64,000 nucleotides of DNA. It comes from a bacterium. GTDB lineage: Bacteria; JAJRZV01. The position numbers and the translations under genes were made by a program. The DNA lies in contig JAJRZV010000047.1 of the NCBI GenBank assembly GCA_024275095.1, positions 159 to 64,158 of the forward strand, in the 5' to 3' direction. Positions 12,963 through 61,544 of this stretch are shown here, piece by piece. Below the pieces are notes generated by a model, which did no database searches, was not told where the DNA came from, and worked only from the letters and a program-made list of their open reading frames with translations. Positions within the stretch are counted from its first letter, which is position 1; each line of letters begins with the position of its first letter.

Positions 12963-13244
12963 CTGGAGTCTAAAACACCCTGCCCGGACAAGCGAGAGAG
13001 TTTAATACGTCATTACTTTACATGAATAATAAACTAATTCCCTCCAACAAATAACACTTTCTTAAAAGTTCACGTTTATTTAAATTCGAAGAGAGTCGTA
13101 TTGCTCTCCAAATTGACATAAGCCCACTACTCTTCCTTTTTTACTCTTCTTAAAGAACGCATCCTTTTTGTAACAATGTAATTGTTTATATTGTCTGATA
13201 TTCGTCAATGTGCAAAGGAGATGTGTTACTTCCAAAAAATTTTC

Positions 13245-13271
13245 TTGACAGGTGACGTTGGTTAATATACA
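13245..13271 (+). promoter_or_regulatory. Sigma-70-like promoter (-35 TTGACA 13245-13250; -10-like TATACA/TACATA ~13266-13274) for the K/A-repeat gene
   Basis: Consensus -35 box. The -10 is ambiguous within an AT-rich TATATATAGTAAAAT stretch. AAGGAGG RBS lies 6 nt before the ATG at 13303. Confidence 0.45.
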
Positions 13272-13302: not shown

Positions 13303-13650
13303 ATGGCCACCAAAGGCAAGAGCTCAAAGAAATCTGCGGCGGCAAAGAAAACCTCCGCCAAAAAAGCGAGCGGATCAAAATCCACAACAAAGGCAAAAAA
13401 AACGGCGGCCAAAAAAACAACAGCGAAGAAGAAAACCGCGGCTAAGAAATCAACAGCAAAGAAAACAGCCACAAAGAAAAAAGCAACGAAAAAAGCCACA
13501 GCGAAGAAAAAAACGACAGCAAGTGCCAAAAAGAAAACAGCGGCCAAAAAAACAGGAGCCAAAAAGGTAAGAAGTAAATCCCCTCCTCTCATACTCCACC
13601 CCGGAGGGTACACCCACCTCCTCTCCTCCGGGGTGGCCAACAGGAGGTGA
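13303..13650 (+). CDS. Histone H1-like / Hc1-AlgP-like lysine-alanine repeat DNA-binding protein
   Basis: ~90 aa of AKKT/AKKK repeats (MATKGKSSKKSAAAKKTSAKKA…) behind a consensus RBS. The last 27 codons are not repeat-like and contain a 12-bp perfect hairpin (13596-13636), so the true stop may be earlier if there is a frameshift. Confidence 0.7.
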   Translation: MATKGKSSKKSAAAKKTSAKKASGSKSTTKAKKTAAKKTTAKKKTAAKKSTAKKTATKKKATKKATAKKKTTASAKKKTAAKKTGAKKVRSKSPPLILHPGGYTHLLSSGVANRR

Positions 13651-14019
13651 AAGAGTATTACTATTTTACAGGGAAAGGTGTACAAGCTTCAAGTCATCTT
13701 TTATTAATATATTTTTACCGAAAAGTTCATTAAGTGTGAGGGCAGGTGGAGTTTCAGGATCGCTCGAAGCATTGAAAACAGTGAAAAATGAAGCATACCA
13801 ATTATTGCTCAACTCCATTCCCGACACCATGAGATCGCCTTGCCTTCGGCTCGCAATGAAAGCTCCGACACACTCACTGCAAGGAGTCCTGCCTTCGGCA
13901 GACGAAGCAGTCCCAGAGATTGCTTCGCTTTCGCTCGCAACGCGTGGGATGAGCAAAGCAAGCCCCATCCCACATACCCCACCGCCCGTAAAGCCTGAGC
14001 ATCGAACCCCGAATGTCCA

Positions 14020-14469
14020 ATGTTGAGACCAGACCCCGAAATTCCGCCTGGCTGGTTGTTCGTTTATGGCACATTGAAAAAAGGTGAAGTTGCACACCAT
14101 CTTATAGAAAGGTTCATTGCCCGTATTGTTCCCGCCACTGTCAGAGGTACACTTTACCATCTCCCCTACGGTTATCCAGTCATAGTGCCTGAAAATCGTG
14201 GTATTGTACACGGCGAGCTCTTTTTCATACCCAATCTTTCACAAATCATTGAACTTCTGGATGATTACGAGGATTACAATTCAGAAAATTCTGCAGAAAG
14301 CCTTTTCATTCGGGTCATGGTTGAAGCAAAAGGAAGTGACGGACGTTACTATTACGCTTGGACATATGCAGCCGGAGAAAAGCTGAAGAAGGTTCTGCAA
14401 AAAAGAGCTATCCCTGTAACCGGGGGTGTATGGACATCCCAAAGATTTGCACCTGCAACGAAATTCTAA
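14020..14469 (+). CDS. Gamma-glutamyl cyclotransferase-like (GGCT/AIG2 family) protein
   Basis: N-terminal signature WLFVYGTLKKGE and conserved downstream Glu (GELF). Confidence 0.72.
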   Translation: MLRPDPEIPPGWLFVYGTLKKGEVAHHLIERFIARIVPATVRGTLYHLPYGYPVIVPENRGIVHGELFFIPNLSQIIELLDDYEDYNSENSAESLFIRVMVEAKGSDGRYYYAWTYAAGEKLKKVLQKRAIPVTGGVWTSQRFAPATKF

Positions 14470-16613: not shown

Positions 16614-16685
16614 CACAAACCACACAAAATTTTCTTGACAGAGCGCGTTGCTACCAATATCTTACCTGACTGACTGGTCAATCAA

Positions 16686-18484: not shown

Positions 18485-19642
18485 ATGAACTTTGCGTTTA
18501 CCGATGAAGAGCGTCAAATCATAGAAGCCTTTGCGGACCTGTGCAAAAAGGAAGTTGAACCCCGGGCAGCTGAGGTTGACCGGGAAATGAAATTTTCCTG
18601 GGAAAACCTGAAAGCTCTTGCTGAATTCGGATATCTCGGTGCCACATGGGATGAAAAGTACGGTGGCAAGGGCATTTCTCTACCGGTATTTCAGGCCATG
18701 AACATCGAGCTGGCCAAGGCGTGTGCTTCGACATATCTCTCTGTATCAGCGAACCTATCACTCTTCGGACACACCATTTACAAATACGGCAGCGACGAAC
18801 AGAAAGAAAAACTCCTGCCAGCTATGACCAGGGGAGAATTTGTGGGGGCTCTGTGTTCTACTGAACCTTCGGCCGGCTCAGATGTTCCGGCCATCAAAAC
18901 AAAGGCAGAAAAGAAGAATGGAAAATACATTATCAACGGGACAAAAACCTTCGTTACAAACGGACCCATAGCCGAATGGTTTGTCGTACTTGCAAAGACG
19001 GAACCGGAAAAAGGACGTGACGGCATGACCATGTTCCTCATTCACAAGGACACACCGGGATTCTCCGTCGGCAAACCATTTCACAAACTGGGAGTGAGGG
19101 GATCACCTACCAGTGAGGTTTACCTGGACGATGTCGAGGTTGATGAAAGTGCAGTTATCGGTGAGGTTAACAAAGGGTACTGGCAGTTGATGAACGTGTT
19201 CACATTTGGCCGGATTGGCATTGCCTCTTTTTCAACAGGTATCGCGGAAGCATGCCTGGAAGAGTGTATAAAATATTCAACCGAAAGAGAGGCGTTTGGC
19301 AAAAGAATTGCCGCTTACGAAGAAGTAAACTTCAAAATTGCGGATATGAAAGTTTACACGGACGTGGCCAGGCAGCTCATTTACCGTGCAGCGTGGGCTT
19401 ACGAAAACGACAAACCAGACGCAAAGGCTCTTGCCTCTGCCGCAAAGCTGTTTGCCTCAGAAATGGCCACAAAAATTGCATCTGATGCCGTACAGATACA
19501 CGGAGGTTATGGATACATCAGTGAATTTCGCGTGGAACGGCTTTACAGAGATGCAAAGCTGGGAGAAATTGGTGAAGGTACATCGGAAATTCAGCGTCTT
19601 CTTCTGGCGAGATACGTGGAAAAAGTTTATGGGGAGGGGTGA
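18485..19642 (+). CDS. Acyl-CoA dehydrogenase (paralog)
   Basis: 385 aa. …CSTEPSAGSDVPAI…, …IHGGYGYISEFRVERLYRDAKLGEIGEGTSEIQ…. Confidence 0.9.
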   Translation: MNFAFTDEERQIIEAFADLCKKEVEPRAAEVDREMKFSWENLKALAEFGYLGATWDEKYGGKGISLPVFQAMNIELAKACASTYLSVSANLSLFGHTIYKYGSDEQKEKLLPAMTRGEFVGALCSTEPSAGSDVPAIKTKAEKKNGKYIINGTKTFVTNGPIAEWFVVLAKTEPEKGRDGMTMFLIHKDTPGFSVGKPFHKLGVRGSPTSEVYLDDVEVDESAVIGEVNKGYWQLMNVFTFGRIGIASFSTGIAEACLEECIKYSTEREAFGKRIAAYEEVNFKIADMKVYTDVARQLIYRAAWAYENDKPDAKALASAAKLFASEMATKIASDAVQIHGGYGYISEFRVERLYRDAKLGEIGEGTSEIQRLLLARYVEKVYGEG

Positions 19643-20796
19643 TCATGAAGAAAATCGCCATAGTTGGGTACGCAACATCTCCTTTCAAACCAGGGATACG
19701 TGACATACACCTGGGAGAACTTGTCTTCAACACAGTGCAGGAAGCGCTGAAAAACACAGGTATGAGTATAGAAGATATTGAAACTGTGGTGGATGCTTCA
19801 TGCGATATTATTGACGGACGCAGTATCAGTAATACCTTCATGATCGAACCAATGGGAGCGTTCCTCAAGGAAGAAGCCAAGGTTGAAGAAGACGGGGCAT
19901 ATGCAACCATATACGCCTACATGAGACTGCTCACCGGAAAATTCAAAACCGCCATGGTTGTCTCCCACGGCAAAATCTCTGAATCTTCACCTGATACGTA
20001 TTCAGGTACTATTGCTGATCCGTTTTTCATGCGGCCGATGGGTATTACCGCTCTCACGTCAACCGCTCTTCACGTCTCAACCTACTACGGCCACTACGGC
20101 ATTGATGAAAAATACGCGGCGATGGTTGCTGTCAAAAACCTGGGCAATGCGAAGCTCAACCCTCGGGCCCACAACAAAGGTGACTATACTGTAGAGGATG
20201 TGTTGAACTCGGAGGTTCTCGCTACTCCCATTAAAAAGCTGGACTCTCCTCCAGTTACCGATGGAGCTGCCGTGATTATTCTTGCCGTAGAAGGAGAAGC
20301 AGAGAAAATTACTGACACGCCTGTATGGATAAGGGGTGTGGGATTTATCAACGATGGCTTTTATCTTGGCCATCGCGACCTGATAGAACTACCGTCTCTG
20401 AGAGAAGCCGCCAGGCGGGCATATGCCGCCGCGGGCATCAAAAATCCTGCCGAAGAAATTGATATCGCTGAGGTGTACGAGTCTTACTCGTTCAACGAGC
20501 TCATGCTTTACGACGGCCTGGGATTCTGCGAAAAAGGTGAAGGATGGAAACTTATCGAAGAAGGCACCACTTGCCGGGATGGTAAACTTCCTGTCAATGT
20601 TTCAGGCGGTGCACTTGGAGCCAACCCGTTAATGGCCCGTGGACTTGTAAACATGATTGAAGTGGCGACTCAGCTTACAGGAAAAGCCGGGGAACACCAG
20701 GTAAAAAAAGATCTGAAAACGGGACTTGTGCACTCCACCAGCGGTTTCTGCTTTCAATCCAATGTTGTATGGATACTCTCCAACGAGAAAGGTTGA
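19639..20796 (+). CDS. SCP-x/nsLTP-type thiolase-like protein (archaeal-type thiolase family that pairs with DUF35 proteins)
   Basis: 385 aa. Thiolase fold with the active-site Cys region …VDASCDII… Start overlaps the ACAD stop. Confidence 0.75.
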   Translation: MIMKKIAIVGYATSPFKPGIRDIHLGELVFNTVQEALKNTGMSIEDIETVVDASCDIIDGRSISNTFMIEPMGAFLKEEAKVEEDGAYATIYAYMRLLTGKFKTAMVVSHGKISESSPDTYSGTIADPFFMRPMGITALTSTALHVSTYYGHYGIDEKYAAMVAVKNLGNAKLNPRAHNKGDYTVEDVLNSEVLATPIKKLDSPPVTDGAAVIILAVEGEAEKITDTPVWIRGVGFINDGFYLGHRDLIELPSLREAARRAYAAAGIKNPAEEIDIAEVYESYSFNELMLYDGLGFCEKGEGWKLIEEGTTCRDGKLPVNVSGGALGANPLMARGLVNMIEVATQLTGKAGEHQVKKDLKTGLVHSTSGFCFQSNVVWILSNEKG

Positions 20797-20824
20797 GGTG
20801 AAAGACAGGATAAAATGTTTGCAC

Positions 20825-20920
20825 AGAAACCAGGGATAGGGCGGGTGGGAAACATAAATAAGGCGCGCGTGCTGCCTGCGCGCCAGAAACCAGGGATAGG
20901 GCGGGTGGGAAATATAAAGT
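20825..20920 (+). repeat. Intergenic leader module: G-rich 35-nt box (20825-20859) – GC hairpin GGCGCGCGTGCTGCCTGCGCGCC (20862-20884) – second box (20885-20920), then RBS AAGGAGGTGCCAcCATG
   Basis: Box AGAAACCAGGGATAGGGCGGGTGGGAAAYATAAA occurs twice. A near-identical module recurs at 22314-22410. Each box carries a G3-N3-G3-N1-G3-N1-G3 G-quadruplex-type motif. Confidence 0.8.
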
Positions 20921-20934
20921 AAGGAGGTGCCACC

Positions 20935-22128
20935 ATGAGGCGTGTTGCCGTTGTTGGAACAGGATATCCCAAACATAAATCGCGCTGGGAGGAGGAGGGC
21001 CTTACGGGACTGGTTTACCTTGCTGCAACAGAAGCCCTTGAAGATGCAGGACTGGAACCTGCTGACATAGAAGCGGTTGTATACGGCAGTTCACCCGAGC
21101 TGTTAACAGGGATCAATCATCCTGAAAAATGGTGTTCAGAAGCATCCTTCTCCGTGGGCAAACCTCAATTTCGAATTCACACCGGAGGAACAGTCGGTGC
21201 TTCAACTGGAATTGCCGCTTTTTATTTTGTGGCATCCGGCATGTTTGACATCGTCCTTGCTGTTACAGGGGATAAAAATTCGGAATCTCCGGTGCAGTAT
21301 GGTTTATCCACTGTGTACGATCCCATTATCGGACGTCAATTTGCGTGCGGGGCACCGTCAGCGGTTGCTCTTCAAGCTCTGGAGTACATGTACAAATTTG
21401 GTGCCACTGAAGAACACGGTGCCAAAATTGCTGTAAAAAATCGCATCAACGCGCTTCGCAACCCCAAGGCGCACCTTCATATAGAAGGAATTAATTTGGA
21501 GATGGTACGCAATTCGCCCATGATCGCATCTCCCATCCGGCTGCTCGATGCATGTCCGGCATCGGATGGTGCTGCTGCCATGATATTCGTCAGTGAAGAA
21601 GTAGCAAAGAAACTCAGCGCTCCCAAGGCATGGGTAAACGGAGTTTCTGCTGTAACAGAAGGGGTCATGTATGTGGACCGTGACATGACAGACCCCATCG
21701 CGCTCAAGAAGGCGGCAAAGACAGCTTACACTCAAGCCGGCGTCACAAATCCATTTAAGGAAATTGATGTTGCGGAACTATACGAAGCATTTTCTTATCA
21801 GGAAATGATCTGGTACGAAGGCCTGGGGTTCTGTGAAAGGGGTGAGGGGATGAAACTCATTGATGAAGGCTCAACGTTCATGAAAGGTATTGACTACGGA
21901 TTTGAAACACCAAGGGCTGGAGAACTGCCGGTTAACCCATCTGGAGGAGTTCTATCATCCAACAACATTGGTTCAACTGCCATGATCCGTCAAATAGAAG
22001 CTTCCATGCAGGTGAGAGACAAAGCAGGCGAACATCAGGTTGACGGAGCCAGAGTGGCTCTTGCACACGGATGGGGTGGAGGCATTCAGTTTCACACGGT
22101 AATGATACTCGGTCGCGAACCGGCATAG
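20935..22128 (+). CDS. SCP-x/nsLTP-type thiolase-like protein (paralog)
   Basis: 397 aa. Thiolase fold with Cys near residue 80-90 and C-terminal …HGWGGG… RBS and ATG sit inside the repeated leader module. Confidence 0.75.
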   Translation: MRRVAVVGTGYPKHKSRWEEEGLTGLVYLAATEALEDAGLEPADIEAVVYGSSPELLTGINHPEKWCSEASFSVGKPQFRIHTGGTVGASTGIAAFYFVASGMFDIVLAVTGDKNSESPVQYGLSTVYDPIIGRQFACGAPSAVALQALEYMYKFGATEEHGAKIAVKNRINALRNPKAHLHIEGINLEMVRNSPMIASPIRLLDACPASDGAAAMIFVSEEVAKKLSAPKAWVNGVSAVTEGVMYVDRDMTDPIALKKAAKTAYTQAGVTNPFKEIDVAELYEAFSYQEMIWYEGLGFCERGEGMKLIDEGSTFMKGIDYGFETPRAGELPVNPSGGVLSSNNIGSTAMIRQIEASMQVRDKAGEHQVDGARVALAHGWGGGIQFHTVMILGREPA

Positions 22129-22313
22129 TGGGGAGTGCTCGATCATTGATGACACTGGTGCAAGTACCGTGAGCACGCTAAGAAGAAATTATTACAGGTG
22201 TATGTGTCGGGATGGAAAGTAGCAGGTGCCTTAACATTCGTGCTTACCACGCACCAGAAAGACTCAGGCTCGGGTGGGTCGGGGAATATAAGAATTGCAG
22301 GGTGCGCCGGGAA

Positions 22314-22410
22314 AGAACCAGGGATAGGGCGGGCGGGAAATATAAAGTAAGGCGCGCGTGCTGCCTGCGCGCCAGAAATCAGGGATAGGGCGGGCGGGAA
22401 ATATAAAGTT
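22314..22410 (+). repeat. Second copy of the box–hairpin–box leader module (boxes 22314-22348 and 22374-22410; hairpin 22351-22373); partial third box at 22273-22293
   Basis: ~95% identical to 20825-20920, including an identical hairpin and identical RBS context AAGGAGGTGCCAtCATG. Confidence 0.8.
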
Positions 22411-22424
22411 AAGGAGGTGCCATC

Positions 22425-22889
22425 ATGAGTACTGATAAAATCAGCTTCGAACCCAAAGTACTCGAAGGTGAAATAAACATTCCCTATAAATGGACCACAG
22501 GTCCAGCAGCGGGAAAATTTTTGACAACTCTACGTGATGAAAGAAAAATTATAGGTCTTAAATGCTCGTCATGTGGGCGCGTCAGTGTACCTCCAGAAGA
22601 AATCTGCGGAAAGTGCCGTAAAAGGAATTCTGAATTTGTGGATATCAGTGACGAAGGCGAACTTGTCTCCTTTACTGAAGTACGCGTTCCCGTGTTCTGG
22701 CAACCGGCTGAACCTCCGTTTGTAATAGGATTCATCAAACTTGACGGTGCAGATACACTGCTTATTCACAGAATTCTCGCATCTGCTTCCTCTTTGAAAA
22801 AAGGTCTTCGTGTAAAGGCTCGCTGGAAGGAAGAGCGTGAAGGCCATATTCTCGACATAGAAGGATTTGAAATCATTCAGGAGGGGTAA
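22425..22889 (+). CDS. DUF35-family Zn-ribbon + OB-fold protein (thiolase-associated acyl-CoA-binding scaffold)
   Basis: 154 aa. CxxC…CxxC rubredoxin-like knuckle (CSSCGRV…CGKCRK) followed by an OB-fold. Confidence 0.72.
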   Translation: MSTDKISFEPKVLEGEINIPYKWTTGPAAGKFLTTLRDERKIIGLKCSSCGRVSVPPEEICGKCRKRNSEFVDISDEGELVSFTEVRVPVFWQPAEPPFVIGFIKLDGADTLLIHRILASASSLKKGLRVKARWKEEREGHILDIEGFEIIQEG

Positions 22890-22891
22890 AA

Positions 22892-23344
22892 ATGGCTGAG
22901 CCTGTGAAAGAAATCAAAGGTCGTTTGATTATTCCCTACAGGTGGTCTTACGGGCGTTCTCTTAGCCTGTTCTTCGAACACACACGCGTTGAAAAAAAGA
23001 TCTACGGGGCACGATGCACCAAATGTAAGAGAGTTCTTGTTCCTCCTGTGGTGGTATGCGGTAGATGTTTCGCCCCCACAGAGGAAGAATGGGTAGAAGT
23101 TGCTGACAGAGGAGAACTGATCGCGTGGACAACGGTTTATTATCCCTTTCCCGGCCAGCCCACACAGCCGCCTTACACTTATGGATATGTATTGCTTGAC
23201 GGTGCAAATACCAAATTCCCTCACCTCATCATGGAAATTGAACCGGAAAAGTTGAAACCCGGAATGCGTATGGAAGCAGTATGGAATGAGGATAGAAAGG
23301 GCGACCTTTATGATATAAAATACTTCCGACCGGAACAGAAATAA
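22892..23344 (+). CDS. DUF35-family Zn-ribbon + OB-fold protein (paralog)
   Basis: 150 aa. CTKCKRV…CGRC knuckle. It is tightly coupled to the upstream paralog, with a 2-nt gap. Confidence 0.72.
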   Translation: MAEPVKEIKGRLIIPYRWSYGRSLSLFFEHTRVEKKIYGARCTKCKRVLVPPVVVCGRCFAPTEEEWVEVADRGELIAWTTVYYPFPGQPTQPPYTYGYVLLDGANTKFPHLIMEIEPEKLKPGMRMEAVWNEDRKGDLYDIKYFRPEQK

Positions 23345-24120: not shown

Positions 24121-24333
24121 GGTAAAAAAGACAAGATTTCTGAGAGCTTCCATCCAGTTTGATGGACCCTCCATTACTCGAGACAGACAAAAGCATCAAT
24201 CAAGACACGGAAATAAACAAAACTTAAAAACCAACACAGGCTTCAGAGTTTCAAAAATACTTGACTCTTGACTTTTGCAAAACAAGGAACCAAAATATTT
24301 AGGACTTCAAACAAATTTTAAGGAGGTGTCAAG

Positions 24334-25602
24334 GTGAAAGGGAAATTGGAAATACTCGCTACCGCCGTTATCCTTTGCTTTACAGTCACAAGCAGTTCCG
24401 CCCACGCTGATAAATGCGTGAAATGTCATTCTAAAGTAACCCCCAAAATCGTATCTGACTGGAAACTCAGCAAACACTTTCAAAACGACGTCTCATGCAG
24501 TGAATGCCACGGTTCCAGGCACAAAAAAGGCAAAAAAGATGCCCACAAAGTTCGCATACCCACACCCGAGACATGCGCCTCCTGCCATGAAGAACGCGTT
24601 AAAGAATTCAAAGCAGGAAAACATGCGTATGCATGGGCAGCCATGAAAGCCATGCCCACAGCTCACCGGCAACCCATGGCACTCATGGACGGCATGAAGG
24701 GCTGTGGGGGATGCCACAAGATCGGTCTGAAAACAGAGAAAGAAATCAACGAACTCAAAAGGCAGGGCCAAAAATTCGGCATAGCATCATGCGATGCCTG
24801 CCACACGCGTCACCTTTTCAGCGTCAAAGAGGCAAAACAGCCTCAGGCCTGTCAGACGTGCCACATGGGCTTCGATCATCCTCAATGGGAAATGTATTCC
24901 TCATCCAAGCACGGTGTGCGTTATCTTCTGAAGCAGGATGGGATACTGCCTTCCGACGCAGCCGCCCCTACATGCCAGACATGCCACATGCAGGACGGTA
25001 ACCATGAAGTGCGCACCGCATGGGGATTCCTCGCTGTCAGGTTGCCACTTCCTGAAGATGAACAATGGAAGAAAGATCGAATCACAATCCTGCAGGCACT
25101 CGGCGTGCTTGATCCTCAGGGCAAACCCACAAAACGCCTGGAGGTGGTCAAAGCAGCAGACGTGGCTCGCCTCGACGAAGCCTCATGGCAGAAGGAACGT
25201 GACAAAATGATCAAAACGTGCAGTCAGTGCCATTCTCCTAAATTCGCCAGGAAAGAACTGGAAAAAGGCGACGAAATGATTAAACAGGCAGACCGGCTCA
25301 TGGCAGAAGCCATTCGCATAGTAGCCGATCTCTACCAGAAGGGCTATCTTAAGAAACCGGCCAGCTATCCTTACCCTTTTCCCGATATTCTTACCTTCCA
25401 CGATGCACCCACGGTCATTGAACAAAAGCTTTTCAAAATGTTCTTAAAACACCGCATGCGCACCTTCCAGGGAACATTCCACATGAATCCCGACTACGCC
25501 CTGTGGTACGGATGGAGTGAAATGAAACAGGACCTCACGGAAATCAAGGAACTTGCCGAAGAAATCAAAGCCAGAGCGAAACACGAGAAACATCACAAGT
25601 AA
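24334..25602 (+). CDS. Periplasmic octaheme c-type cytochrome (HAO / octaheme-reductase-like multiheme family)
   Basis: GTG start with AAGGAGGT 6 nt upstream. Sec signal MKGKLEILATAVILCFTVTSSSAHA. Eight CxxCH motifs (CVKCH, CSECH, CASCH, CGGCH, CDACH, CQTCH x2, CSQCH). Confidence 0.85.
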   Translation: MKGKLEILATAVILCFTVTSSSAHADKCVKCHSKVTPKIVSDWKLSKHFQNDVSCSECHGSRHKKGKKDAHKVRIPTPETCASCHEERVKEFKAGKHAYAWAAMKAMPTAHRQPMALMDGMKGCGGCHKIGLKTEKEINELKRQGQKFGIASCDACHTRHLFSVKEAKQPQACQTCHMGFDHPQWEMYSSSKHGVRYLLKQDGILPSDAAAPTCQTCHMQDGNHEVRTAWGFLAVRLPLPEDEQWKKDRITILQALGVLDPQGKPTKRLEVVKAADVARLDEASWQKERDKMIKTCSQCHSPKFARKELEKGDEMIKQADRLMAEAIRIVADLYQKGYLKKPASYPYPFPDILTFHDAPTVIEQKLFKMFLKHRMRTFQGTFHMNPDYALWYGWSEMKQDLTEIKELAEEIKARAKHEKHHK

Positions 25603-25647
25603 TCAGGTACAAGCTACCCCAGAGGGGGCACATGCCCCCTCTTTTCC

Positions 25648-40357: not shown

Positions 40358-41062
40358 TCAGGAGGTAAGGAAGAACCTCCTTGTGATCTCGTCCCAACGA
40401 TCCGGATCAAGGGCACGTGCCAATCCCTTTACAGGTAAACCGCCGTCCTGATACACAAGACCAAGATCCTGTCCCGTAAGCCTGCGAAGTTCATCTGTAG
40501 AATGTTCTATCCACTTTTTCACCACATGGCCTTTTAATAAATTCCTGAGTGCAGAAGGTCTTGAGAGCTTCACCTTTAGAAGCCAACCCTTTTCGTAAGG
40601 GTCCTGTTCCATGGTCTCGGGGGAAGTGAGCACGTCATTGTTAACACCTACAACCTCACCGTCCACAGGAGAAAGCATATCTATCTTTTTTGAATCTACA
40701 ACAAGAGCCCATCCTTTCTCTCCCTGTTCAAGCCTTGTACCTTCACGTGGTAAATCCAGTGAATTGACTTTACCAACGAGCTTTTGAGCAAAATCGTCAA
40801 GACCCACCTGAACCACGTCTCCCGAGAGTACTTTGACCCAGGTATGTCCGGGATGGAAATAATAGGGCGCTTCTGGAGGTGGGACGCGGAACCACTCCAC
40901 AATGTCATAAAGCCAACCGTGGGAGACCTCTGCTTCAGCCTCTACAGCGGGAGTGGTCAGGTAAGACCAAAAGGCAACCAGCAAAAGGAGGAAACCTATT
41001 ACCAGAAGATATTCAACGCCTTTTGTTGCGTATATGTCTATCATGGCCAGCGTCTCCATCAT
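40358..41062 (-). CDS. Membrane-anchored glycine-cleavage H-protein-like (lipoyl-carrier-fold) protein, paralog 1
   Basis: One N-terminal TM helix. H-protein core …YFHPGHTWVKVLSGDVVQVGLDDFAQKLVGKVNSLDLPREGT…VVDSKKIDMLSPVDGEVVGVN… aligns with E. coli GcvH, with a Lys at the lipoyl-attachment position. Start overlaps the NrfD stop (ATGA). Confidence 0.68.
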   Translation of the reverse strand: MMETLAMIDIYATKGVEYLLVIGFLLLLVAFWSYLTTPAVEAEAEVSHGWLYDIVEWFRVPPPEAPYYFHPGHTWVKVLSGDVVQVGLDDFAQKLVGKVNSLDLPREGTRLEQGEKGWALVVDSKKIDMLSPVDGEVVGVNNDVLTSPETMEQDPYEKGWLLKVKLSRPSALRNLLKGHVVKKWIEHSTDELRRLTGQDLGLVYQDGGLPVKGLARALDPDRWDEITRRFFLTS

Positions 41063-42303
41063 GCCACCTCCTTTTTCATCTGGACTACATTATCCTCTTC
41101 CTCCCAGCCCTTGTGTTCGGTCAACACAGGCATTCTGTTCACCACCCACCTGAAAGCCCACATTTCTGCACAAATAACTGCCAGTGTAATCACTATTTCC
41201 ATCCAGGAAGGCACGTACCTGTTGGCAGCGTCCCATTTAAAAGCGATGATAGAAACGTTCAATCTGTTGAGAAGCACACCAACAACCGTAAAGAAGGCAA
41301 CAGTTTGAATCAACTTCACATTGCGAGTTCTTACACCGTAAGTGAAAAGCAGACACGGTATTACAACAAAGCCTATGAGTTCCACCAGATACCAGTGCCC
41401 CATCGAGGTGTTCAGCAGGTGCCAGTGATTACCGTGAGCAATACTTATGATTTTTAATGTGAAGTAGAGAAACAGTGTACCTGCAGCAGCTTTTCCGAGT
41501 CCCACTACAATATCATCAAAGGAGGCATGGTGCTCCGGGTCCACCTGAAACACTTTATGCGAGATGGAACTTTCCACAATGACCATGGAAAGTCCTCCAA
41601 AAATGCTGGACACAAAGAAAAGAACCGGAAGATTGGTATACCAGAGAGGATGAACTTTTGTGGGAGCCATGAGGAATAAAGCCCCAAGAGCCGACTGGTG
41701 CAACGTGGACAACGTGATCCCAAAAATCACCGCTCCCACCGTAAGTCCTCCAACGATCTGTCGAATTCTTTTCCACCCGAGCCATTCGGTAATAGCAGGA
41801 CTGAATTCCACAAATTCACAAATGGTGTAGAGAAAAAAATGCCACGCGATGAGAAATAACACCGAACTGAGTCCAAAGGAGTTACCAATCAGAGGATTAA
41901 TGACGTGCCATGGGCGGCCAAGATCCAGTAAAAGGGCACCACCATAAAAGCAATACCCCAGAAACCCTGTAAGAACCGCCGGTCTTACGATTGGATGGTA
42001 TTTTTCAAGTCCCAGTATATACACCATAAAAGGAATTACATATCCACCAGCAGCAATAGCCACACCCCCCATTACGTCGAACCCGATCCATATCCCCCAT
42101 GGAAAATCCTGTGACAGGTTGGTGGTAGCGCCCAGGCCTTTTACAAATCGAATCACAATAAGTACGCCACCAGCGAGGATAATTGCTCCGGTGATGACAT
42201 TAAAAGGAGTGAGTATCTTCCCCTTTGGTTTCAACTCGCTAATGATGAACCTGACAAAGTTTCCGACTTCGGACATGAGATTTTTCCTTTCGGCAGTGTT
42301 CAT
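41059..42303 (-). CDS. NrfD/PsrC-family quinone-interacting integral membrane subunit
   Basis: 414 aa, ~10 TM. NrfD-like topology and size. Sits immediately downstream of the FeS subunit. Confidence 0.82.
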   Translation of the reverse strand: MNTAERKNLMSEVGNFVRFIISELKPKGKILTPFNVITGAIILAGGVLIVIRFVKGLGATTNLSQDFPWGIWIGFDVMGGVAIAAGGYVIPFMVYILGLEKYHPIVRPAVLTGFLGYCFYGGALLLDLGRPWHVINPLIGNSFGLSSVLFLIAWHFFLYTICEFVEFSPAITEWLGWKRIRQIVGGLTVGAVIFGITLSTLHQSALGALFLMAPTKVHPLWYTNLPVLFFVSSIFGGLSMVIVESSISHKVFQVDPEHHASFDDIVVGLGKAAAGTLFLYFTLKIISIAHGNHWHLLNTSMGHWYLVELIGFVVIPCLLFTYGVRTRNVKLIQTVAFFTVVGVLLNRLNVSIIAFKWDAANRYVPSWMEIVITLAVICAEMWAFRWVVNRMPVLTEHKGWEEEDNVVQMKKEVA

Positions 42304-42316
42304 TTTGTCCCCTCCT

Positions 42317-43195
42317 TCATTTAGCTTTTTTCACTTCTTCTTTTTTCACCTCTTCCCTGCGAGCATGGCTGATGCCCAGCAGAAAAGCAGGCCATATAAG
42401 AAGGACAAGAGAAACCCCGTAAAGGAATTCCTTTGTCAGTTCAGGATATGGTCTTGTGCCTACATTCGTGGGGAATCCAAGCTGTTCGAAGGGGACAGCA
42501 GCAAGGTACAACCATCCGGTGCCACCAACTTCGTGTTCGCCATAAACATGATGGACGTATTTATCAGGATTGTTATAAATACGCCTCTTTGCTTCTTCAA
42601 GAAGTTCACCCCTTTTACCAAAGACGATCGCTTCCTCAGGACATGCCTCCACGCACGCCGGCTGTTCTCCTTTCTCCAGCCTTTCGTAACACATGATGCA
42701 TTTGCGGATGCGGGGGTTAGGGCTGTCGTATTCAAACTTCGGAATATCGAAAGGACACGAAATCATACAATAACGACAGCCCATGCATTTATTCCCCCGC
42801 CAGATCACAGGACCTTCTGGTGTTTTATACATGGCCTTAACCAGACACGCCGATGCACAGGCAGGTTGATTACAGTGCATGCACTGTTTCTTCGCGTATA
42901 CCGTGCCCTTTTCTGTTTCATACCGATTTACCACGGTCCAGTGGTTCGGGTCAGTTTTACGATGCCTCTCGAACACAGATTCATCATCAATATCAGGCAC
43001 CGGAAGACCGTGAGCTTCTGCACACGCCTCTTCACAACTTCGACAACCAATGCACCGTGTGGTATCCACCAGTACAGAAGCCATTTCATTGAACACATCC
43101 TGGGCTGACTTCAAAGTACCGGCAGATGCAAGACCCCCGGTAAGGAGGGCTCCACCTGAAATCGCCGCAGTTTTGAGGAAGTCTCTTCGTCTCAT
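42317..43195 (-). CDS. Tat-exported 4x[4Fe-4S] ferredoxin subunit (NrfC/PsrB/HybA/DsrO-like)
   Basis: Twin-arginine signal MRRRDFLKTAAISGGALL. Four Cys clusters (CIGCRSCEEAC, CMHCNQPACASAC, CMGCRYCMISCP, CIMC…CVEACP). C-terminal hydrophobic helix. Confidence 0.85.
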   Translation of the reverse strand: MRRRDFLKTAAISGGALLTGGLASAGTLKSAQDVFNEMASVLVDTTRCIGCRSCEEACAEAHGLPVPDIDDESVFERHRKTDPNHWTVVNRYETEKGTVYAKKQCMHCNQPACASACLVKAMYKTPEGPVIWRGNKCMGCRYCMISCPFDIPKFEYDSPNPRIRKCIMCYERLEKGEQPACVEACPEEAIVFGKRGELLEEAKRRIYNNPDKYVHHVYGEHEVGGTGWLYLAAVPFEQLGFPTNVGTRPYPELTKEFLYGVSLVLLIWPAFLLGISHARREEVKKEEVKKAK

Positions 43196-43212
43196 TTCCG
43201 TTTACCTCCTTA

Positions 43213-43845
43213 TCAGGCTTTCTCTAAAAACTCTTTCACAATTGCCTGCCAGTGCTCTTTGTCTATTTTCTCGGAAAGTCCTTTAGGCACCTCTCCTCCA
43301 TCTGCTACAGTCACTCCAACTTCGGCGCTGAGGAAGTGATGGAGTCGATCTGATTCTCTCAACAGCCACTCTTTCGCCTTTTCACCGGAATAGAGGTCTT
43401 TCAAACCTCTCTTTTGTACCTTCATTTTGAGTATCCACCCTTCGCCGTAAGGGTCTTCTGAAACCACTTCCGGACGATGCAAGACAGTGGAGTTCACCTC
43501 CACTACCGTTCCATCAATGGGCCCAGGAACATTTACTTCTCCAGCATGGGCAGCGATCCTTATTGACGGCTTCCCTCTTCTCACCTCTCTTTTGGGCGGA
43601 ATTATCTCGCGAATGCGTCCAATAAGACGGACAGCAAAATCATCCAGACCGACCCTTGCAACCTCCTTCTCTTCAGGCTGAATCCACGTATGTACTGGTG
43701 AATAGAACCGGTCACCCGCAAAAACGAAACCGTGAACCTTCTCTATCCCCTCTGTTTTCACCCGCTGGCTCAACATCTGAGCCACCGCTATGGCACCCAT
43801 AACCACGAAAATCAAAAAAATCGCCACGTAACCCATAACGTTCAC
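43213..43845 (-). CDS. Membrane-anchored glycine-cleavage H-protein-like protein, paralog 2 (lipoyl-Lys position not conserved)
   Basis: N-terminal TM helix, then …SPVHTWIQPEEKEVARVGLDDFAVRLIGRI…PIDGTVVEVN… An Ala/His sits at the position aligning to the GcvH lipoyl-Lys. Confidence 0.66.
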   Translation of the reverse strand: MNVMGYVAIFLIFVVMGAIAVAQMLSQRVKTEGIEKVHGFVFAGDRFYSPVHTWIQPEEKEVARVGLDDFAVRLIGRIREIIPPKREVRRGKPSIRIAAHAGEVNVPGPIDGTVVEVNSTVLHRPEVVSEDPYGEGWILKMKVQKRGLKDLYSGEKAKEWLLRESDRLHHFLSAEVGVTVADGGEVPKGLSEKIDKEHWQAIVKEFLEKA

Positions 43846-44600
43846 CTCCTTTTCCTTTTTTTAAAAAAGCTTCTTGCCACCATCCCCCATTCCACCTGGT
43901 CGAGCTGCTTGTGCAAGCCAGGCATAATCTCTCCCCCGTCAGCAACAACCACGCCCAGTCTTTCCTCGAGAATTCTGTGCAGCTTATCAACTTCCTTTTC
44001 TATCCAATTTTTCACGCTCTCTCCGTGCAAGAGATTTTCGAGTGCATTTTGATCTTCAGGTTCTATCTCGCAGATCCAGCCCTCGAGATAGGGATCTCTC
44101 GTGAGGAGGCCGGGGTCTGCCTTTAAAGACTCATTTATTCCCACGACTGTACCGCTTACCGGGGAAAGCAGGCGTACTGATTTATCCCCGCACTTCACTT
44201 CACAAAGCACCTCCCCCTCTTTAACGAGACTTCCAGGCTCCGGGAGTTGAAGAGAAGAGACTCCATCCAGCAATCTGCTCCCAAAATGATCAAGTCCCAC
44301 TGACACGCGATTACGACCAGGCTTTACCCACAGGTGAGCAGGGTGATAGTAGAGATTCTTCATGAAGTAATAACCTCTTACCTTCTCGAGAAATGGCCTT
44401 ATGAGAGACTCCCTGTAAAACGGACACAAATGATACTCACCGGACGTGCACAGCGAAGGCTCCTTTTCAATGGACTCCAGGGGAATGGGTTTGCGCGTGG
44501 GAGCTTCACGACAGAATCCCACTGTTACAATCTCCAGGTGAGGACACTTGCCTCTTGTTTTCCTTTTTCGAGACTTTTTGAGGGTTACCTTTTTTCTCAT
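43842..44600 (-). CDS. Glycine-cleavage H-protein-like protein, paralog 3, with basic/Cys-rich N-terminal region
   Basis: …HPAHLWVKPGRNRVSVGLDHFGSRLL…EVKCGDKSVRLLSPVSGTVVGIN… The N-terminus is MRKKVTLKKSRKRKTRGKCPHLE…C…C…C. I prefer the ATG at 44600 (AGGAGG 8 nt upstream, downstream of the sigma-54 promoter) over the ORF-track start at 44669. Confidence 0.62.
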   Translation of the reverse strand: MRKKVTLKKSRKRKTRGKCPHLEIVTVGFCREAPTRKPIPLESIEKEPSLCTSGEYHLCPFYRESLIRPFLEKVRGYYFMKNLYYHPAHLWVKPGRNRVSVGLDHFGSRLLDGVSSLQLPEPGSLVKEGEVLCEVKCGDKSVRLLSPVSGTVVGINESLKADPGLLTRDPYLEGWICEIEPEDQNALENLLHGESVKNWIEKEVDKLHRILEERLGVVVADGGEIMPGLHKQLDQVEWGMVARSFFKKRKRR

Positions 44601-44627
44601 TTTATCGCCTCCTGGACATGCCAATGT

Positions 44628-44643
44628 AGCAAATGCCATGCCA
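44628..44643 (-). promoter_or_regulatory. Sigma-54 (-24/-12) promoter TGGCAT-N5-TTGCT for the H-like/FeS/NrfD operon
   Basis: The minus strand reads 5'-TGGCATggcatTTGCTa-3' (consensus TGGCAC-N5-TTGCW). AGGAGG and ATG follow ~25 nt downstream. An NtrC-type activator gene lies adjacent. Confidence 0.6.
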
Positions 44644-44840
44644 CCATGGGCAATGGTCTCCAAAAGCACTACAGTAAAGGATTCTGAGAGACTCGCTATT
44701 TCTTCAGCGACCCTCAGAGTGTAGAAAAATTCATCTGTCGTGTTGCATTCTTCGACACACTTCTAAGACACACTGCGTCAACAATTCCGGTTTGCGTCAA
44801 AATGATAAAATGGGAACAAAAATTTAGTTTTTAGAGATAG

Positions 44841-54775: not shown

Positions 54776-55417
54776 TCAACCATCAGAAAACACGCGCCTG
54801 AGCACTTCGCGCCGTATGCGTGCATACTTGATGATGTAATCTGTACCAGAAATCCAGGTGAGCAAAAGTGCCACATACAGGCAAATGAGCCCTATCAAAT
54901 GGACAGGAATACCCCAGAGAGGATGGTGCATAATGAGCATAACAAACGCAACATTCTGAGTAACAGTTTTTGTCTTACCCAGTGAAGAAGCTGCTATTAC
55001 CACTCCTTGAGTGGTGGCAATACCGCGGATACCGGTAATAATAACTTCTCTCAACACTATAAGAGCAATAACCCAAGCAGGGGCACGGTCCAGGGGAATT
55101 AACATAATAGCCGTTGTTGTTACAAGGGCCTTATCAGCGATTGGATCCAGAAGCTTGCCCAGATCAGTAACAAGATTGTATCTTCGGGCTATAACGCCAT
55201 CCACTGTATCCGATACGGCCACTATAAAATAAATGAAAGCGGTTATATAGCTGAGCGTATAATCCGTTTTCTTTCCCGTGTAGTGATGAATAAGAATAAG
55301 CAATATCATAATTACAGCCACCGCTCCCATGCGAAACACCGTGATAATATTCGGCGCTGTCCAGAACTTTTGGGTCGATGTGTCAGACCTTTTATCAGGT
55401 GCTTCCATAAAATTCAC
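54776..55417 (-). CDS. pgsA: CDP-diacylglycerol–glycerol-3-phosphate 3-phosphatidyltransferase (CDP-alcohol phosphatidyltransferase family)
   Basis: Signature …DTVDGVIARRYNLVTDLGKLLDPIADKAL… matches D-x2-DG-x2-AR…G-x3-D-x3-D. 4-5 TM. Confidence 0.8.
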   Translation of the reverse strand: MNFMEAPDKRSDTSTQKFWTAPNIITVFRMGAVAVIMILLILIHHYTGKKTDYTLSYITAFIYFIVAVSDTVDGVIARRYNLVTDLGKLLDPIADKALVTTTAIMLIPLDRAPAWVIALIVLREVIITGIRGIATTQGVVIAASSLGKTKTVTQNVAFVMLIMHHPLWGIPVHLIGLICLYVALLLTWISGTDYIIKYARIRREVLRRVFSDG

Positions 55418-57972: not shown

Positions 57973-59121
57973 ATGGACATGCAGAAAAAGAGGATGTGTT
58001 ATATTGTTTTTTTGTTCTTACTCTCCACGTGTGCACCAGAAGAAGAGGTGCATCCGTTTACCAACGGCACGGATAACAGCCACATCTATTCGGTGAAGGC
58101 ACCTCAAGTGTTTCAACCACTGATAGAACAAAACGAAGATGGGTCATATACAGTGAGCGTGAGTCTGCCTTCTCCGGGCCTTGCATTCCCGGGGGCAAGC
58201 ACCAGGACACTCAGCGGGAAGGCTGAAATAAATGTGCTGTATCTACAAAGTGTCCAGCAACGTACACTTCGCCTCCCCGCCACCCAGATTGTTCACGGCA
58301 CGCTCCTCTATCCAGAAAACACGCGCGTGAGAATTTCAAATTCCGAATTCAGAATATGGGAAGGTAGCAACGAACCATTCCCTTATCTGCAGAAAGGCAA
58401 CTACAGTGTAAAAATCCTGGAGATCAGCAACCTGACCACCAACTCACCGGCTGCGTTAATAGGGTACTCCAGCGGAAGCCGGTATGTAGAATACCTGTGG
58501 ATCATGCGCGATGGTTTTGCGTACCCTGTAGCTCAAATACGACGTGCCAAGAAGCTCGACTTTCACCTTCCGCCCCTGAGGGGCCGATACATTCTCTTTT
58601 CTTCTTCCGACTTTCTCGTAAACTCCTACATCAGGCCTGATACCGTACGTGGTGTATCCAGTGAATTCATGCTGGACGAAGGAGAAAATCCCAAAATCAT
58701 GGTCGAACTTTTCTGGCTCAGACCAATTGACATGGACCTGCACATCCTTCCTTACGGTAACATGCCTTCGGGAGGAGCATACGACTGTTACTTCGGCAAC
58801 ACCCAGACATCATGGGGATGCCAATTTCTCAATATCAACGATGCAGGTTTTGGTGAGAACCGGGGTGGACGGGGCTTTGGTTCGCCCGAGGTAGCAGTAT
58901 TGAACAATACAGTTGATGGATGGTATGTAATTGTTGCCGACGTTTACAACATGCGTGATGCAGTATGGGATATATGTTTTGTCAGCTTAAAGCACCAACA
59001 TGGTCAAACAGTGATATTCTCGCCCGTAACAGCCAACCAGACAATCACAATGGCCAAATTTCATGTAAAAAATGGCCACATTGTAGAAATTATTCCTCTA
59101 AACTCTATTACTGAAGAATAA
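57973..59121 (+). CDS. Hypothetical secreted lipoprotein
   Basis: Signal plus lipobox …FLFLLSTC|APEE. 382 aa with no recognisable domain. Confidence 0.4.
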   Translation: MDMQKKRMCYIVFLFLLSTCAPEEEVHPFTNGTDNSHIYSVKAPQVFQPLIEQNEDGSYTVSVSLPSPGLAFPGASTRTLSGKAEINVLYLQSVQQRTLRLPATQIVHGTLLYPENTRVRISNSEFRIWEGSNEPFPYLQKGNYSVKILEISNLTTNSPAALIGYSSGSRYVEYLWIMRDGFAYPVAQIRRAKKLDFHLPPLRGRYILFSSSDFLVNSYIRPDTVRGVSSEFMLDEGENPKIMVELFWLRPIDMDLHILPYGNMPSGGAYDCYFGNTQTSWGCQFLNINDAGFGENRGGRGFGSPEVAVLNNTVDGWYVIVADVYNMRDAVWDICFVSLKHQHGQTVIFSPVTANQTITMAKFHVKNGHIVEIIPLNSITEE

Positions 59122-60855: not shown

Positions 60856-61544
60856 TGAAATGCCGACGTCCTATATACGAGTGGCCGGAAACACAGAGAC
60901 CACGCGAACGTGCACTTGACGAAGGAGTTGAGTCTCTTTCAGATTCAGAATTACTCGCGCTTATCATCGCAAAAGGCACGGCAGAACACAGTGCCGTTCA
61001 ACTGGGTGAAGCACTGATCCAGCGTTTCGGGTCCCTCGGAGAAATTGCCCGTCGCAACCCTGTTGAATTCATGGAAATTCCCGGTATCGGAAAGGCAAAA
61101 GCAGCTGCCATATCAGCTGCTTTTGAGATGGGACGGCGTGCACACTTACCGGATAAAGAGAAGGTTATATTGATAGGAAAACCAAGCGATGTCCATGCAT
61201 ACATGGCTCCCCGCATAGCCCACCTTCCACAGGAGACCTTCTGGGTACTACTTCTCAACACGCGCGGACGCCTTTTGCGAGCTGTAAAAATTTCTGAAGG
61301 AACACTCAATGCCACAGTAGCCCACCCCAGAGATGTCTTCAGAACGGCAATTGCTGAAAATGCCGCTTCCATTGTTCTCGTGCACAATCATCCAGGAGGG
61401 GACTCTTCCCCTTCACCAGCAGATGTGGAATTAACGCACCAGCTGGTTAAGGCTGGGGATATATTTGACATCAAAGTAGTGGATCACGTAATTATCACCA
61501 CAAATGGATACTTCTCTACAGCAGAAAAAATGGGTATTCCCTGA
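60856..61544 (+). CDS. radC: RadC-family JAB/MPN-domain protein (UPF0758)
   Basis: HhH N-terminal (…LSDSELLALIIAKGT…IPGIGKAKAAAISAAFEMGRR). JAMM-like …LVHNHPGGDSSPSPADVELT… I chose the start at the Met clear of the convergent MBL gene; the ORF-track start at 60624 overlaps it. Confidence 0.8.

Follow-up and report, generated by a model that had tools for sequence, protein, structure and literature searches.

The repetitive extragenic palindromic (REP) sequences of bacteria are present in hundreds of copies whose orientation often alternates, and have REP-associated tyrosine transposases (RAYTs) as their partners (PMC2817692). The intergenic structure between malE and malF of Escherichia coli shields the upstream mRNA from 3'-5' exonucleases and is a REP acting as a 3' protective structure that shapes differential mRNA decay; papBA is protected likewise, and structured 5' ends shield downstream mRNA segments (PMC5927463). 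Repeats able to form G-quadruplexes (G4s) have also been described. The GGGNATC repeats of Xanthomonas and Nostoc lie preferentially between co-oriented open reading frames (ORFs), near the ORF ends, are transcribed and show a preference for four G-tracts (PMC4692102), and expression in E. coli and P. aeruginosa rose when an RNA G-quadruplex (rG4) was placed at position -20 (PMC6974567). Here we describe a G4-bearing repeat in a 64,000-nucleotide stretch of DNA (hereafter the window), positions 159 to 64,158 of the forward strand of contig JAJRZV010000047.1 (GenBank assembly GCA_024275095.1), from an uncultured bacterium. The repeat is a near-identical leader of about 110 nt which stands as module A before the gene thiolase-2 (start 20935) and as module B before the gene DUF35-1 (start 22425) of the same operon.

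Each module has the layout G4 box – GC hairpin – G4 box – strong Shine-Dalgarno (SD) sequence – ATG, lies between two cistrons on the sense strand, and folds in silico into two G4s flanking a hairpin. It is a lineage-specific insertion which was copied locally together with its ribosome-binding site (RBS). The interpretation that we prefer, with a probability of roughly 40%, is that the modules form a transcribed, purine-rich, nuclease-resistant intercistronic cassette which would give both genes the same strong translation start.

The box has the consensus CAGGGATAGGGCGGG[T/C]GGGAAA[Y]ATAAA and occurs in four copies, all on the plus strand. Its 28-nt consensus CAGGGATAGGGCGGGTGGGAAATATAAA starts at 20831, 20891, 22319 and 22380 with at most one mismatch in each copy (20831-20858, 20891-20918, 22319-22346 and 22380-22407; none expected by chance in shuffled sequence), and its form as a search pattern is CAGGGATAGGGCGGGNGGGAAA. 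Between the two boxes of each module lies a 23-nt palindrome, GGCGCGCGTGCTGCCTGCGCGCC, whose two copies at 20862-20884 and 22351-22373 are identical, again with none expected by chance. The repeat module is real and beyond chance. The unit of box plus hairpin recurs with a start-to-start spacing of 60/61 nt; the units were not called as a tandem array by Tandem Repeats Finder. An alignment of modules A and B from the CCAGGG of the first box to the ATG has 110 columns, of which 7 differ; upstream of the first box the similarity of the modules ends abruptly. The resulting identity of 93.6% is close to the ~95% estimated in an initial annotation of the window, whose duplicated leader before thiolase-2 and DUF35-1 is confirmed by the location of all boxes, hairpins and SD-ATG ends. 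Both modules are 68-69% purine, with G:C of about 2:1. The initial annotation had also placed a third, degenerate box at 22273-22293. This sequence belongs to a much diverged third unit of 60 nt, B0 (about 22252-22311), upstream of module B, which can be aligned with the intact units (mean column identity of 70% in the five-unit alignment) but is not significant as an nhmmer match alone (E=18). The parts of the modules are as follows.

20825-20860, plus strand: box A1, with the G4 core GGGATAGGGCGGGTGGG at 20833-20849, then the A/U-rich linker AAACATAAATAA
20862-20884, plus strand: hairpin A, with the stem GGCGCGCG/TGCGCGCC of 8 pairs (the last one G-U), a 7-nt loop and -15.5 kcal/mol; no U-run follows on the sense side, and the minus strand then reads TTATTTATGTTT
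20885-20920, plus strand: box A2, with the G4 core at 20893-20909, then the linker AAATATAAAGT
20921-20937, plus strand: RBS A, with the SD AAGGAGGTG at 20921-20929, the spacer CCACC and the ATG of thiolase-2 (20935)
22252-22311, plus strand: decayed unit B0, with the degenerate box GGCTCGGGTGGGTCGGGGAATATAAG and a degenerate 'hairpin' segment
22312-22349, plus strand: box B1, with the G4 core GGGATAGGGCGGGCGGG at 22321-22337
22351-22373, plus strand: hairpin B, of the same sequence as hairpin A
22374-22410, plus strand: box B2, with the G4 core at 22382-22398
22411-22427, plus strand: RBS B, with the SD AAGGAGGTG at 22411-22419, the spacer CCATC and the ATG of DUF35-1 (22425)

Both modules end in TAAGGAGGTGCCAYC-ATG, written also as AAGGAGGTGCCAYC-ATG, and the G4 boxes sit 26-42 nt and 86-102 nt before the ATG. 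With its 5-nt spacer the SD AAGGAGGTG represents the strongest SD class found in the window, where it is common (also at 24334, 40358 and 46947), and ATGAG opens both orthologues in a syntenic relative as well. Given the common SD and the shared ATGAG, the identity of A and B at the RBS end is partly generic. The spacer CCAYC is common to the two modules alone, so that the RBS must have been copied along with the repeat, in a segment joined at or beside the start codon.

Within each box, GGGATAGGGCGGG[T/C]GGG is a canonical G3+N1-7 motif with four G3 tracts and the loops ATA, C and T/C (3-1-1). This pattern match on the plus strand bears out the proposal, made in the initial annotation, of a four-tract G4 motif on the mRNA-sense strand of every box. 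On both strands of the window there are five canonical G4 motifs, four of them being these boxes, as compared with a mean of 0.8 and a maximum of 4 in dinucleotide shuffles. The boxes being copies of one another, they amount to one or two independent events and not to four; what the count does show is that such a motif is unusual in this genome. The fifth motif, GGGCGGTGGGGTATGTGGGATGGGG, lies on the minus strand at 13963-13987, inside a minus-strand ORF (13666-14211) without Pfam match. The description of the genome as thermophile-like is unsupported, the window having 40-50% G+C and nothing that bears on growth temperature.

When G4s were allowed (ViennaRNA with gquad), each module folded in silico as G4 – hairpin – G4, with all four G4s used. 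The minimum free energy of module A was -72.7 kcal/mol with gquad vs -36.3 kcal/mol without it; each box contributed about -22.8 and the hairpin -15.5 kcal/mol. In this calculation the G4 fold is energetically favoured over competing base pairing.

The gene order around the modules is TetR–ACAD–ACAD–thiolase–thiolase–DUF35–DUF35 (ACAD, acyl-CoA dehydrogenase), which corresponds to a fatty-acid-type degradation operon of an uncultured anaerobe.

16635-16663, plus strand: promoter-like site TTGACA-17-TATCTT, ahead of the TetR gene (16686)
16686 (start): TetR/FadR-like regulator
17288 and 18485 (starts): two acyl-CoA dehydrogenases
19639-20796, plus strand: thiolase-like gene 1, SCP-x-type, upstream of module A, its start overlapping the end of ACAD-2
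20935-22128, plus strand: thiolase-2, SCP-x-type, between modules A and B
22425-22889 and 22892-23344, plus strand: DUF35-1 and DUF35-2, DUF35/ChsH2-type OB-fold proteins, 2 nt apart

Thiolase-2 begins with MRRVAVVGTG, in line with the consensus of its family. The two module-bearing junctions measure 138 and 296 nt, and the remaining junctions of the operon overlap or measure 2-15 nt. The promoter-like site at 16635-16663 is the probable start of the module-bearing transcript. Within the modules, the scans reported no sigma-70-type promoter-like site on either strand and no terminator-like site. The TATAAA has no -35 partner, the sequence 17 nt upstream reading CCAGGG; on the sense strand the hairpin is followed by AGAAAYCAGGG, with no U-run, and was not called by the terminator scan. 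Given their sense-strand position inside an operon and the lack of any such reported site, the modules are almost certainly transcribed as intercistronic mRNA. Their position on the sense strand of one transcription unit, as the initial annotation had it, agrees with the promoter-like site and with the same seven-gene operon in a relative.

Several other features were noted around this operon. The partial palindrome TGACTGACTGGTCA (16667-16680), located downstream of the -10-like hexamer and ahead of the TetR start codon, is a candidate operator for a FadR-like repressor; it is unrelated to the boxes or the GC hairpin, and a role of the repeats as TetR operators was rejected. The TetR gene has no recognisable SD, its leader being just ~20 nt. 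The motif CA(A/C)AAAATTTTCTTGACAG is present at 13233-13260 and 16623-16650, upstream of a histone-like gene and of the TetR operon; it resembles an A/T-rich UP-like stretch joined to a consensus -35 hexamer and may be a strong-promoter signature of this organism. The next transcription unit carries a multihaem cytochrome gene (24334-25602) with the promoter-like site TTGACT-17-CAAAAT at 24268-24296 and, 3' of the gene, the strong terminator-like hairpin AGAGGGGGCACATGCCCCCTCT at 25621-25642. With its own promoter-like site and terminator-like hairpin, the cytochrome gene is probably transcribed separately from the thiolase operon.

The proteins of the window and the orthologous junctions were compared with those of other genomes. 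The closest non-self homologues were 68% identical for thiolase-2 and 62% identical for IspG, the window proteins looked up were single-member clusters, and the named homologue matches came from Thermodesulfobacteriota and Desulfovibrionales-type metagenome-assembled genomes (MAGs). Judged by these similarities, the source organism is a deep-branching lineage near Thermodesulfobacteriota with no close sequenced relative. The junctions were compared in 17 genomes with thiolase-2 orthologues. At the loci of Blastocatellia, Actinomycetota, Planctomycetota and others, the gaps flanking the orthologue were mostly 5-50 nt and in a few cases 80-190 nt, and the orthologous junctions of these loci contained no G4 motif. 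The full seven-gene operon was found in one relative only, an uncultured Thermodesulfobacteriota MAG of 63% G+C (loci L001, L002 and L010). All five intercistronic gaps of this MAG are long (138-240 nt), and at least four of them hold a long inverted repeat with arms of ~19-33 nt, different from gap to gap. The positions recorded are as follows.

L002:5103-5186: inverted repeat
L002:7207-7278: inverted repeat
L002:8548-8616: inverted repeat
L002:11216-11304: inverted repeat
L002:11896-11964: inverted repeat

These palindromes are made of short iterated words (CACAGAG, GTCGACAG, ATCGATA and CACAAAG). The hairpin ACCACAGAGGACACAGAGGTCACAGAG is present twice, the second time upstream of the TetR gene, and is thus a member of a dispersed palindromic family of that MAG. 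The spacers of the window share no sequence similarity with the spacers of the syntenic MAG. The different hairpins in the MAG indicate that long structured inserts recur at these junctions with unrelated sequences, and from its absence in relatives, together with the unrelated palindromes of the syntenic MAG, we concluded that the G4 module is a lineage-specific acquisition.

Searches for further copies were all negative. In the 64-kb window of the source genome, to which our copy counts apply, an nhmmer box profile and pattern searches found nothing beyond the four boxes and the decayed unit B0. The box pattern had 0 matches in a collection of one genome per GTDB species and none in plasmids. 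It had 4 matches in the JGI metagenomes, where ~5 are expected by chance for 19 fixed bases; no module similarity was seen outside the 20-22 matched bases, and two of the four are one same sequence, in which the matched bases read WDRAGGKYGNKG, presumably a lumazine-synthase-like motif. Viral contigs gave one match, of which blastn aligned 19 bases only (95% identity), phages gave one sub-significant match (E = 0.4, 37% of the query), and none of 28 fetched loci contained the module. Uncalled copies were also sought indirectly, by translated searches: five reading frames of the module, used as a pseudo-protein against 5.8 billion clusters, had no match, and one minus-strand frame, compared with 1.84 billion representatives, matched only unrelated periodic repeat proteins of the MSHVSYEWV type (27-37% identity). 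Against Rfam the modules had no match, whether the gathering threshold or a limit of E up to 10 was applied. The module belongs to no described family. The initial annotation had named absence from all related genomes as an outcome that would speak against its cis-acting RNA element; this absence is what we found in every relative and collection searched, and the module is not a conserved regulator.

The arrangement of the units gives a clue to their history. As B0 is decayed, the tandem array at the thiolase-2/DUF35-1 junction predates the split of A and B, and an array older than this split makes locus B the likely origin. The 60-nt unit, consisting of one G4 box and one GC hairpin, would have arisen by tandem duplication at that junction, and the module would later have been copied with its RBS to the thiolase-1/thiolase-2 junction. 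The two A boxes agree in having T as the third loop of the G4, and the two B boxes in having C; this uniformity points to homogenisation within each locus. All seven differences between A and B fall outside the 52 positions of G-tracts, hairpin stem, SD and ATG (p=0.011 under uniform mutation), and B0 has decayed while the two RBS-proximal units remained intact. Constraint on the structural positions may be regarded as suggestive, not decisive.

How such a cassette may work can be outlined from its parts. Two three-tetrad G4s (loops 3-1-1) and a GC hairpin of -15 kcal/mol would make a compact, purine-rich and C-poor spacer which would resist 3'-5' exonucleases, load Rho poorly and uncouple the downstream cistron from the upstream one. 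Next would come an A/U-rich stretch free of structure and then, 5 nt ahead of the ATG, a perfect SD of 9 nt. The two A/U-rich linkers, at 20850-20861 and 20910-20920 in module A and at 22338-22350 and 22399-22410 in module B, would be the sole single-stranded A/U-rich segments and hence the only plausible endonuclease sites. Cleavage in a linker would leave the upstream cistron with a 3' end capped by a G4, and the downstream cistron would start with the hairpin or else with a G4 and then the SD. The net outcome would be segmental mRNA stabilisation and an equally strong translation start for thiolase-2 and DUF35-1. That the G4s form in vivo is inferred, as is each of the above consequences. 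The cassette interpretation is supported by the sense strand, the operon synteny with the relative and the scans reporting no promoter-like or terminator-like site in the modules, as well as by the recurrence of structured inserts at these junctions in the syntenic MAG. It follows the protective logic of malE-malF and papBA (PMC5927463) and agrees with the effect of the rG4 at -20 (PMC6974567).

Several observations weigh against this interpretation. The absence of the module from every relative and collection searched leaves it with no support from conservation. Ordinary (non-G4) folding of the spacers is no better than that of shuffled sequences (z = 0.07 and 0.11), allowing G4s leaves the computed accessibility of the SD unchanged, and in a G4Hunter scan with a 25-nt window none of the four boxes was among the 12 top-scoring windows (all at least 1.5) of the 64 kb. 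All five substitutions between A and B are C/T transitions, and the bias in their positions has p=0.19 if only pyrimidines are at risk. Guo and Bartel (2016) reportedly found rG4 regions to be depleted in the transcriptomes of bacteria, and their introduction into E. coli to be harmful. Moreover, experimentally found bacterial rG4s are mostly two-tetrad and located in coding sequence (PMC6974567). The structure and G4 prediction suggested in the initial annotation has thus a divided outcome, a G4 – hairpin – G4 fold with gquad and a z of ~0 for ordinary structure. The same is true of the cis-acting RNA element which it proposed: the sense-strand position, the transcribed context and the G4 fold speak for it, whereas the lack of conservation, the ordinary fold and the unchanged SD accessibility do not.

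A stronger version of the cassette, namely a selected G4-based cis-regulator in which two three-tetrad RNA G4s clamp the GC hairpin and control processing or translation at two junctions, seems to us improbable. Such a regulator might sense K+, temperature, heme or another cue that stabilises G4s. If it were true, it would represent a natural class of bacterial regulatory RNA built on stable three-tetrad G4s and portable with its RBS.

The main rival to the cassette is that the modules are neutral or selfish repeat DNA without selected function, either a minisatellite-like 60-nt tandem or a low-copy element like REPs or miniature inverted-repeat transposable elements (MITEs), and we consider this somewhat unlikely. 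The repeat would have been copied over 1.5 kb by gene conversion or by microhomology at ATGAG and tolerated through its working SD, its effects on RNA being incidental. A lineage-specific module absent from all relatives is what such a history predicts, as are the decayed unit B0, the per-locus homogenisation of loop 3, a substitution pattern that is not significant under the C/T spectrum and the folding z of ~0; the unrelated palindromes at the syntenic MAG junctions, one of them found again upstream of TetR, also look like a repeat family colonising permissive sites. Against it, the 64 kb hold just two loci, which share one orientation and each join a start codon exactly, and the window ORFs that were scanned against Pfam include no gene for a transposase or RAYT. 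Furthermore, at 4-6% divergence there are 0 changes in the 24 G-tract or the 23 hairpin positions, the hairpins being 100% identical. The DNA itself could also be the level of action: G4s formed on the non-template strand in the course of transcription or replication may promote R-loops, pausing, post-replication gaps or gene conversion, much as with the pilE G4 of Neisseria or the two RRS repeats of E. coli, and the duplication could even stem from G4-stimulated recombination. The canonical short-loop motif does lie on the non-template strand, the two near-identical copies bear signs of gene conversion, and two-copy bacterial G4 repeats acting through DNA are documented (PMC11194060). Yet the copies stand 1.5 kb apart in a metabolic operon, with no recombination-related gene or silent-cassette system nearby, and are fused to RBSs which a DNA-topology element does not need, so that we regard this as very improbable.

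Two further explanations concern protein binding to the RNA and the termination of antisense RNA. The boxes might be an array of sites for an RNA-binding protein, for example a CsrA-type regulator or another protein binding G-rich RNA, with GGA sites ~60 and 30 nt apart and the last one over the SD (AAGGAGG), where a dimer could occlude translation. CsrA dimers bridge two sites, and the consensus of Dubey and colleagues (2005) is said to be RUACARGGAUGU. CAGGGAU, which equals the SELEX core CARGGAU, is present in all four boxes, with an additional GGA in the SD; the spacing is compatible with bridging by a dimer, and the identity of the boxes within a locus is as expected for one protein. The resemblance was, however, spotted post hoc, CARGGAT is common in the window (15 on the plus and 17 on the minus strand vs ~8 per strand expected), the GGA lies inside a predicted G4 and not in a hairpin loop, and no csrA gene is visible in the window; this explanation is improbable. 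Least likely of all, and by our estimate highly improbable, is a barrier to antisense transcription that combines intrinsic and Rho-dependent termination on the minus strand. Read on that strand, the hairpin of -15.5 kcal/mol is followed by a U-rich tract, UUAUUUAUGUUU or UUACUUUAUAUUU, and flanked by C-rich, G-poor tracts (CCCACCCGCCCUAUCCC) which would be ideal for Rho; with an A-tract before the hairpin and no U-tract after it on the sense strand, the element would be unidirectional. But no minus-strand promoter-like site was reported in the modules or in the DUF35 genes just downstream, and minus-strand promoter-like sites in the 16-26 kb region were no more numerous than in shuffled sequence. 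In addition, the minus-strand loop is 9 nt and was not called by the terminator scan, and the fusion to the SD would be left unexplained.

Some other candidates were tried and rejected. A CRISPR mini-array is contradicted by the 23-nt 'spacer' being the same palindrome at both loci, by the presence of two intact repeats at each and by the absence of cas domains in the window. The 296-nt spacer holds only SD-less small ORFs running through the repeats. In a switch between G4 and hairpin that hides the CCACC beside the SD, GGUGG of the second box of module A can pair with CCACC, but in module B the T-to-C change of the box and the C-to-T change of the spacer do not compensate each other, and the SD is equally accessible with and without the G4. 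An assembly artefact does not fit the thiolase gene between the copies, which is intact and syntenic.

Stable three-tetrad RNA G4s are regarded as rare in the mRNAs of bacteria, and even as counter-selected. In the present operon four such motifs occur, paired before two RBSs, and their G-tracts are intact through ~5% divergence. If folded and active in vivo, the modules would be a compact natural 'insulator plus RBS' cassette made from G4s instead of hairpins, which would bear on differential expression within operons and could serve as a part in synthetic biology. If inert, they would be an example of intergenic repeats that replace a translation start region harmlessly.

Three observations elsewhere in the window are recorded here. 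The gene at 13303-13650 encodes a lysine/alanine-rich protein like histone H1/Hc2, with weak NCBIfam matches to histone H1-like DNA-binding proteins, and its DNA has a 15-nt periodic repeat of the AAAGAAAACAGC type. The minus strand encodes, at 40358-44669, three consecutive proteins that each combine a long N-terminal extension with a lipoyl-carrier domain of the glycine-cleavage H type; interspersed among them are a 4Fe-4S dicluster protein and a protein of 414 aa that has no Pfam match, an unusual arrangement. A 25-nt direct repeat, CAGAAAACACGCGCCTGAGCACTTC, is present in three copies (54784-54808, 58313-58337 and 60894-60918), the latter two being 88% and 72% identical to the first; its chance expectation is borderline.

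Compared with described systems, the module resembles the REPs and bacterial interspersed mosaic elements (BIMEs), as in malE-malF, in that an imperfect GC-rich palindrome occupies the gap between two cistrons and forms part of the operon transcript; GGCGCGCGTGCTGCCTGCGCGCC, at -15.5 kcal/mol, agrees with the description of a REP/BIME palindrome (20-40 nt, imperfect, GC-rich). Unlike REPs, the module occurs at two loci in 64 kb in direct organisation, its main repeated part is the G4 box, and no RAYT, a tyrosine transposase of the IS200/IS605-like kind, is found among the window ORFs scanned against Pfam. It shares with the GGGNATC repeats the G4-forming capacity, the intergenic position and transcription, but those are heptamer simple-sequence repeats, genome-wide and mostly antisense near ORF starts (PMC4692102), whereas the module, known from one operon only, is a 60-nt composite that includes a hairpin, lies on the sense strand and is joined to an SD. 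The mRNA G4s of hemL and bswR are on the sense strand too and affect expression (PMC6974567); these are mostly two-tetrad and in coding sequence, unlike the paired three-tetrad motifs in intercistronic leaders described here. The RRS of E. coli and the pilE G4 of Neisseria are likewise rare G4-bearing sequences, with one or two copies per genome and a structural role for the G4 (PMC11194060), but they act on DNA via post-replication gaps and recombination, their positions are conserved across related species, and they are not joined to RBSs.

At the level of the G4 itself, the box AGGGATAGGGCGGGTGGGAAA differs from CatG4, TGGGTAGGGCGGGTTGGGAAA, a hemin-binding DNAzyme (cf. PS2.M), by one mismatch and two single-base indels. 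It shares the activity-enhancing 3' adenines of CatG4 and nearly matches the hemin-aptamer core GGGTAGGGCGGGTTGGG, with AAA at the 3' side. CatG4 is an artificial DNA aptamer and peroxidase DNAzyme selected in vitro, and any parallel G4 stacks hemin; this resemblance was noticed post hoc, and a link to heme is no more than a lead. The next transcription unit encodes the multihaem cytochrome. The BOX elements of pneumococci are also composite intergenic elements, with variable internal units, located near genes, transcribed and predicted to be structured. They are, however, dispersed in >100 copies, hairpin-based and not G4-rich, and have no sequence similarity to the module. Nearest to the module among the precedents are the intercistronic stabilisers of the REP type and the intergenic G4 repeats described in Xanthomonas and Nostoc, from which it differs in architecture and copy number; it is best called a structured intergenic repeat in operon junctions, itself a known kind of element.

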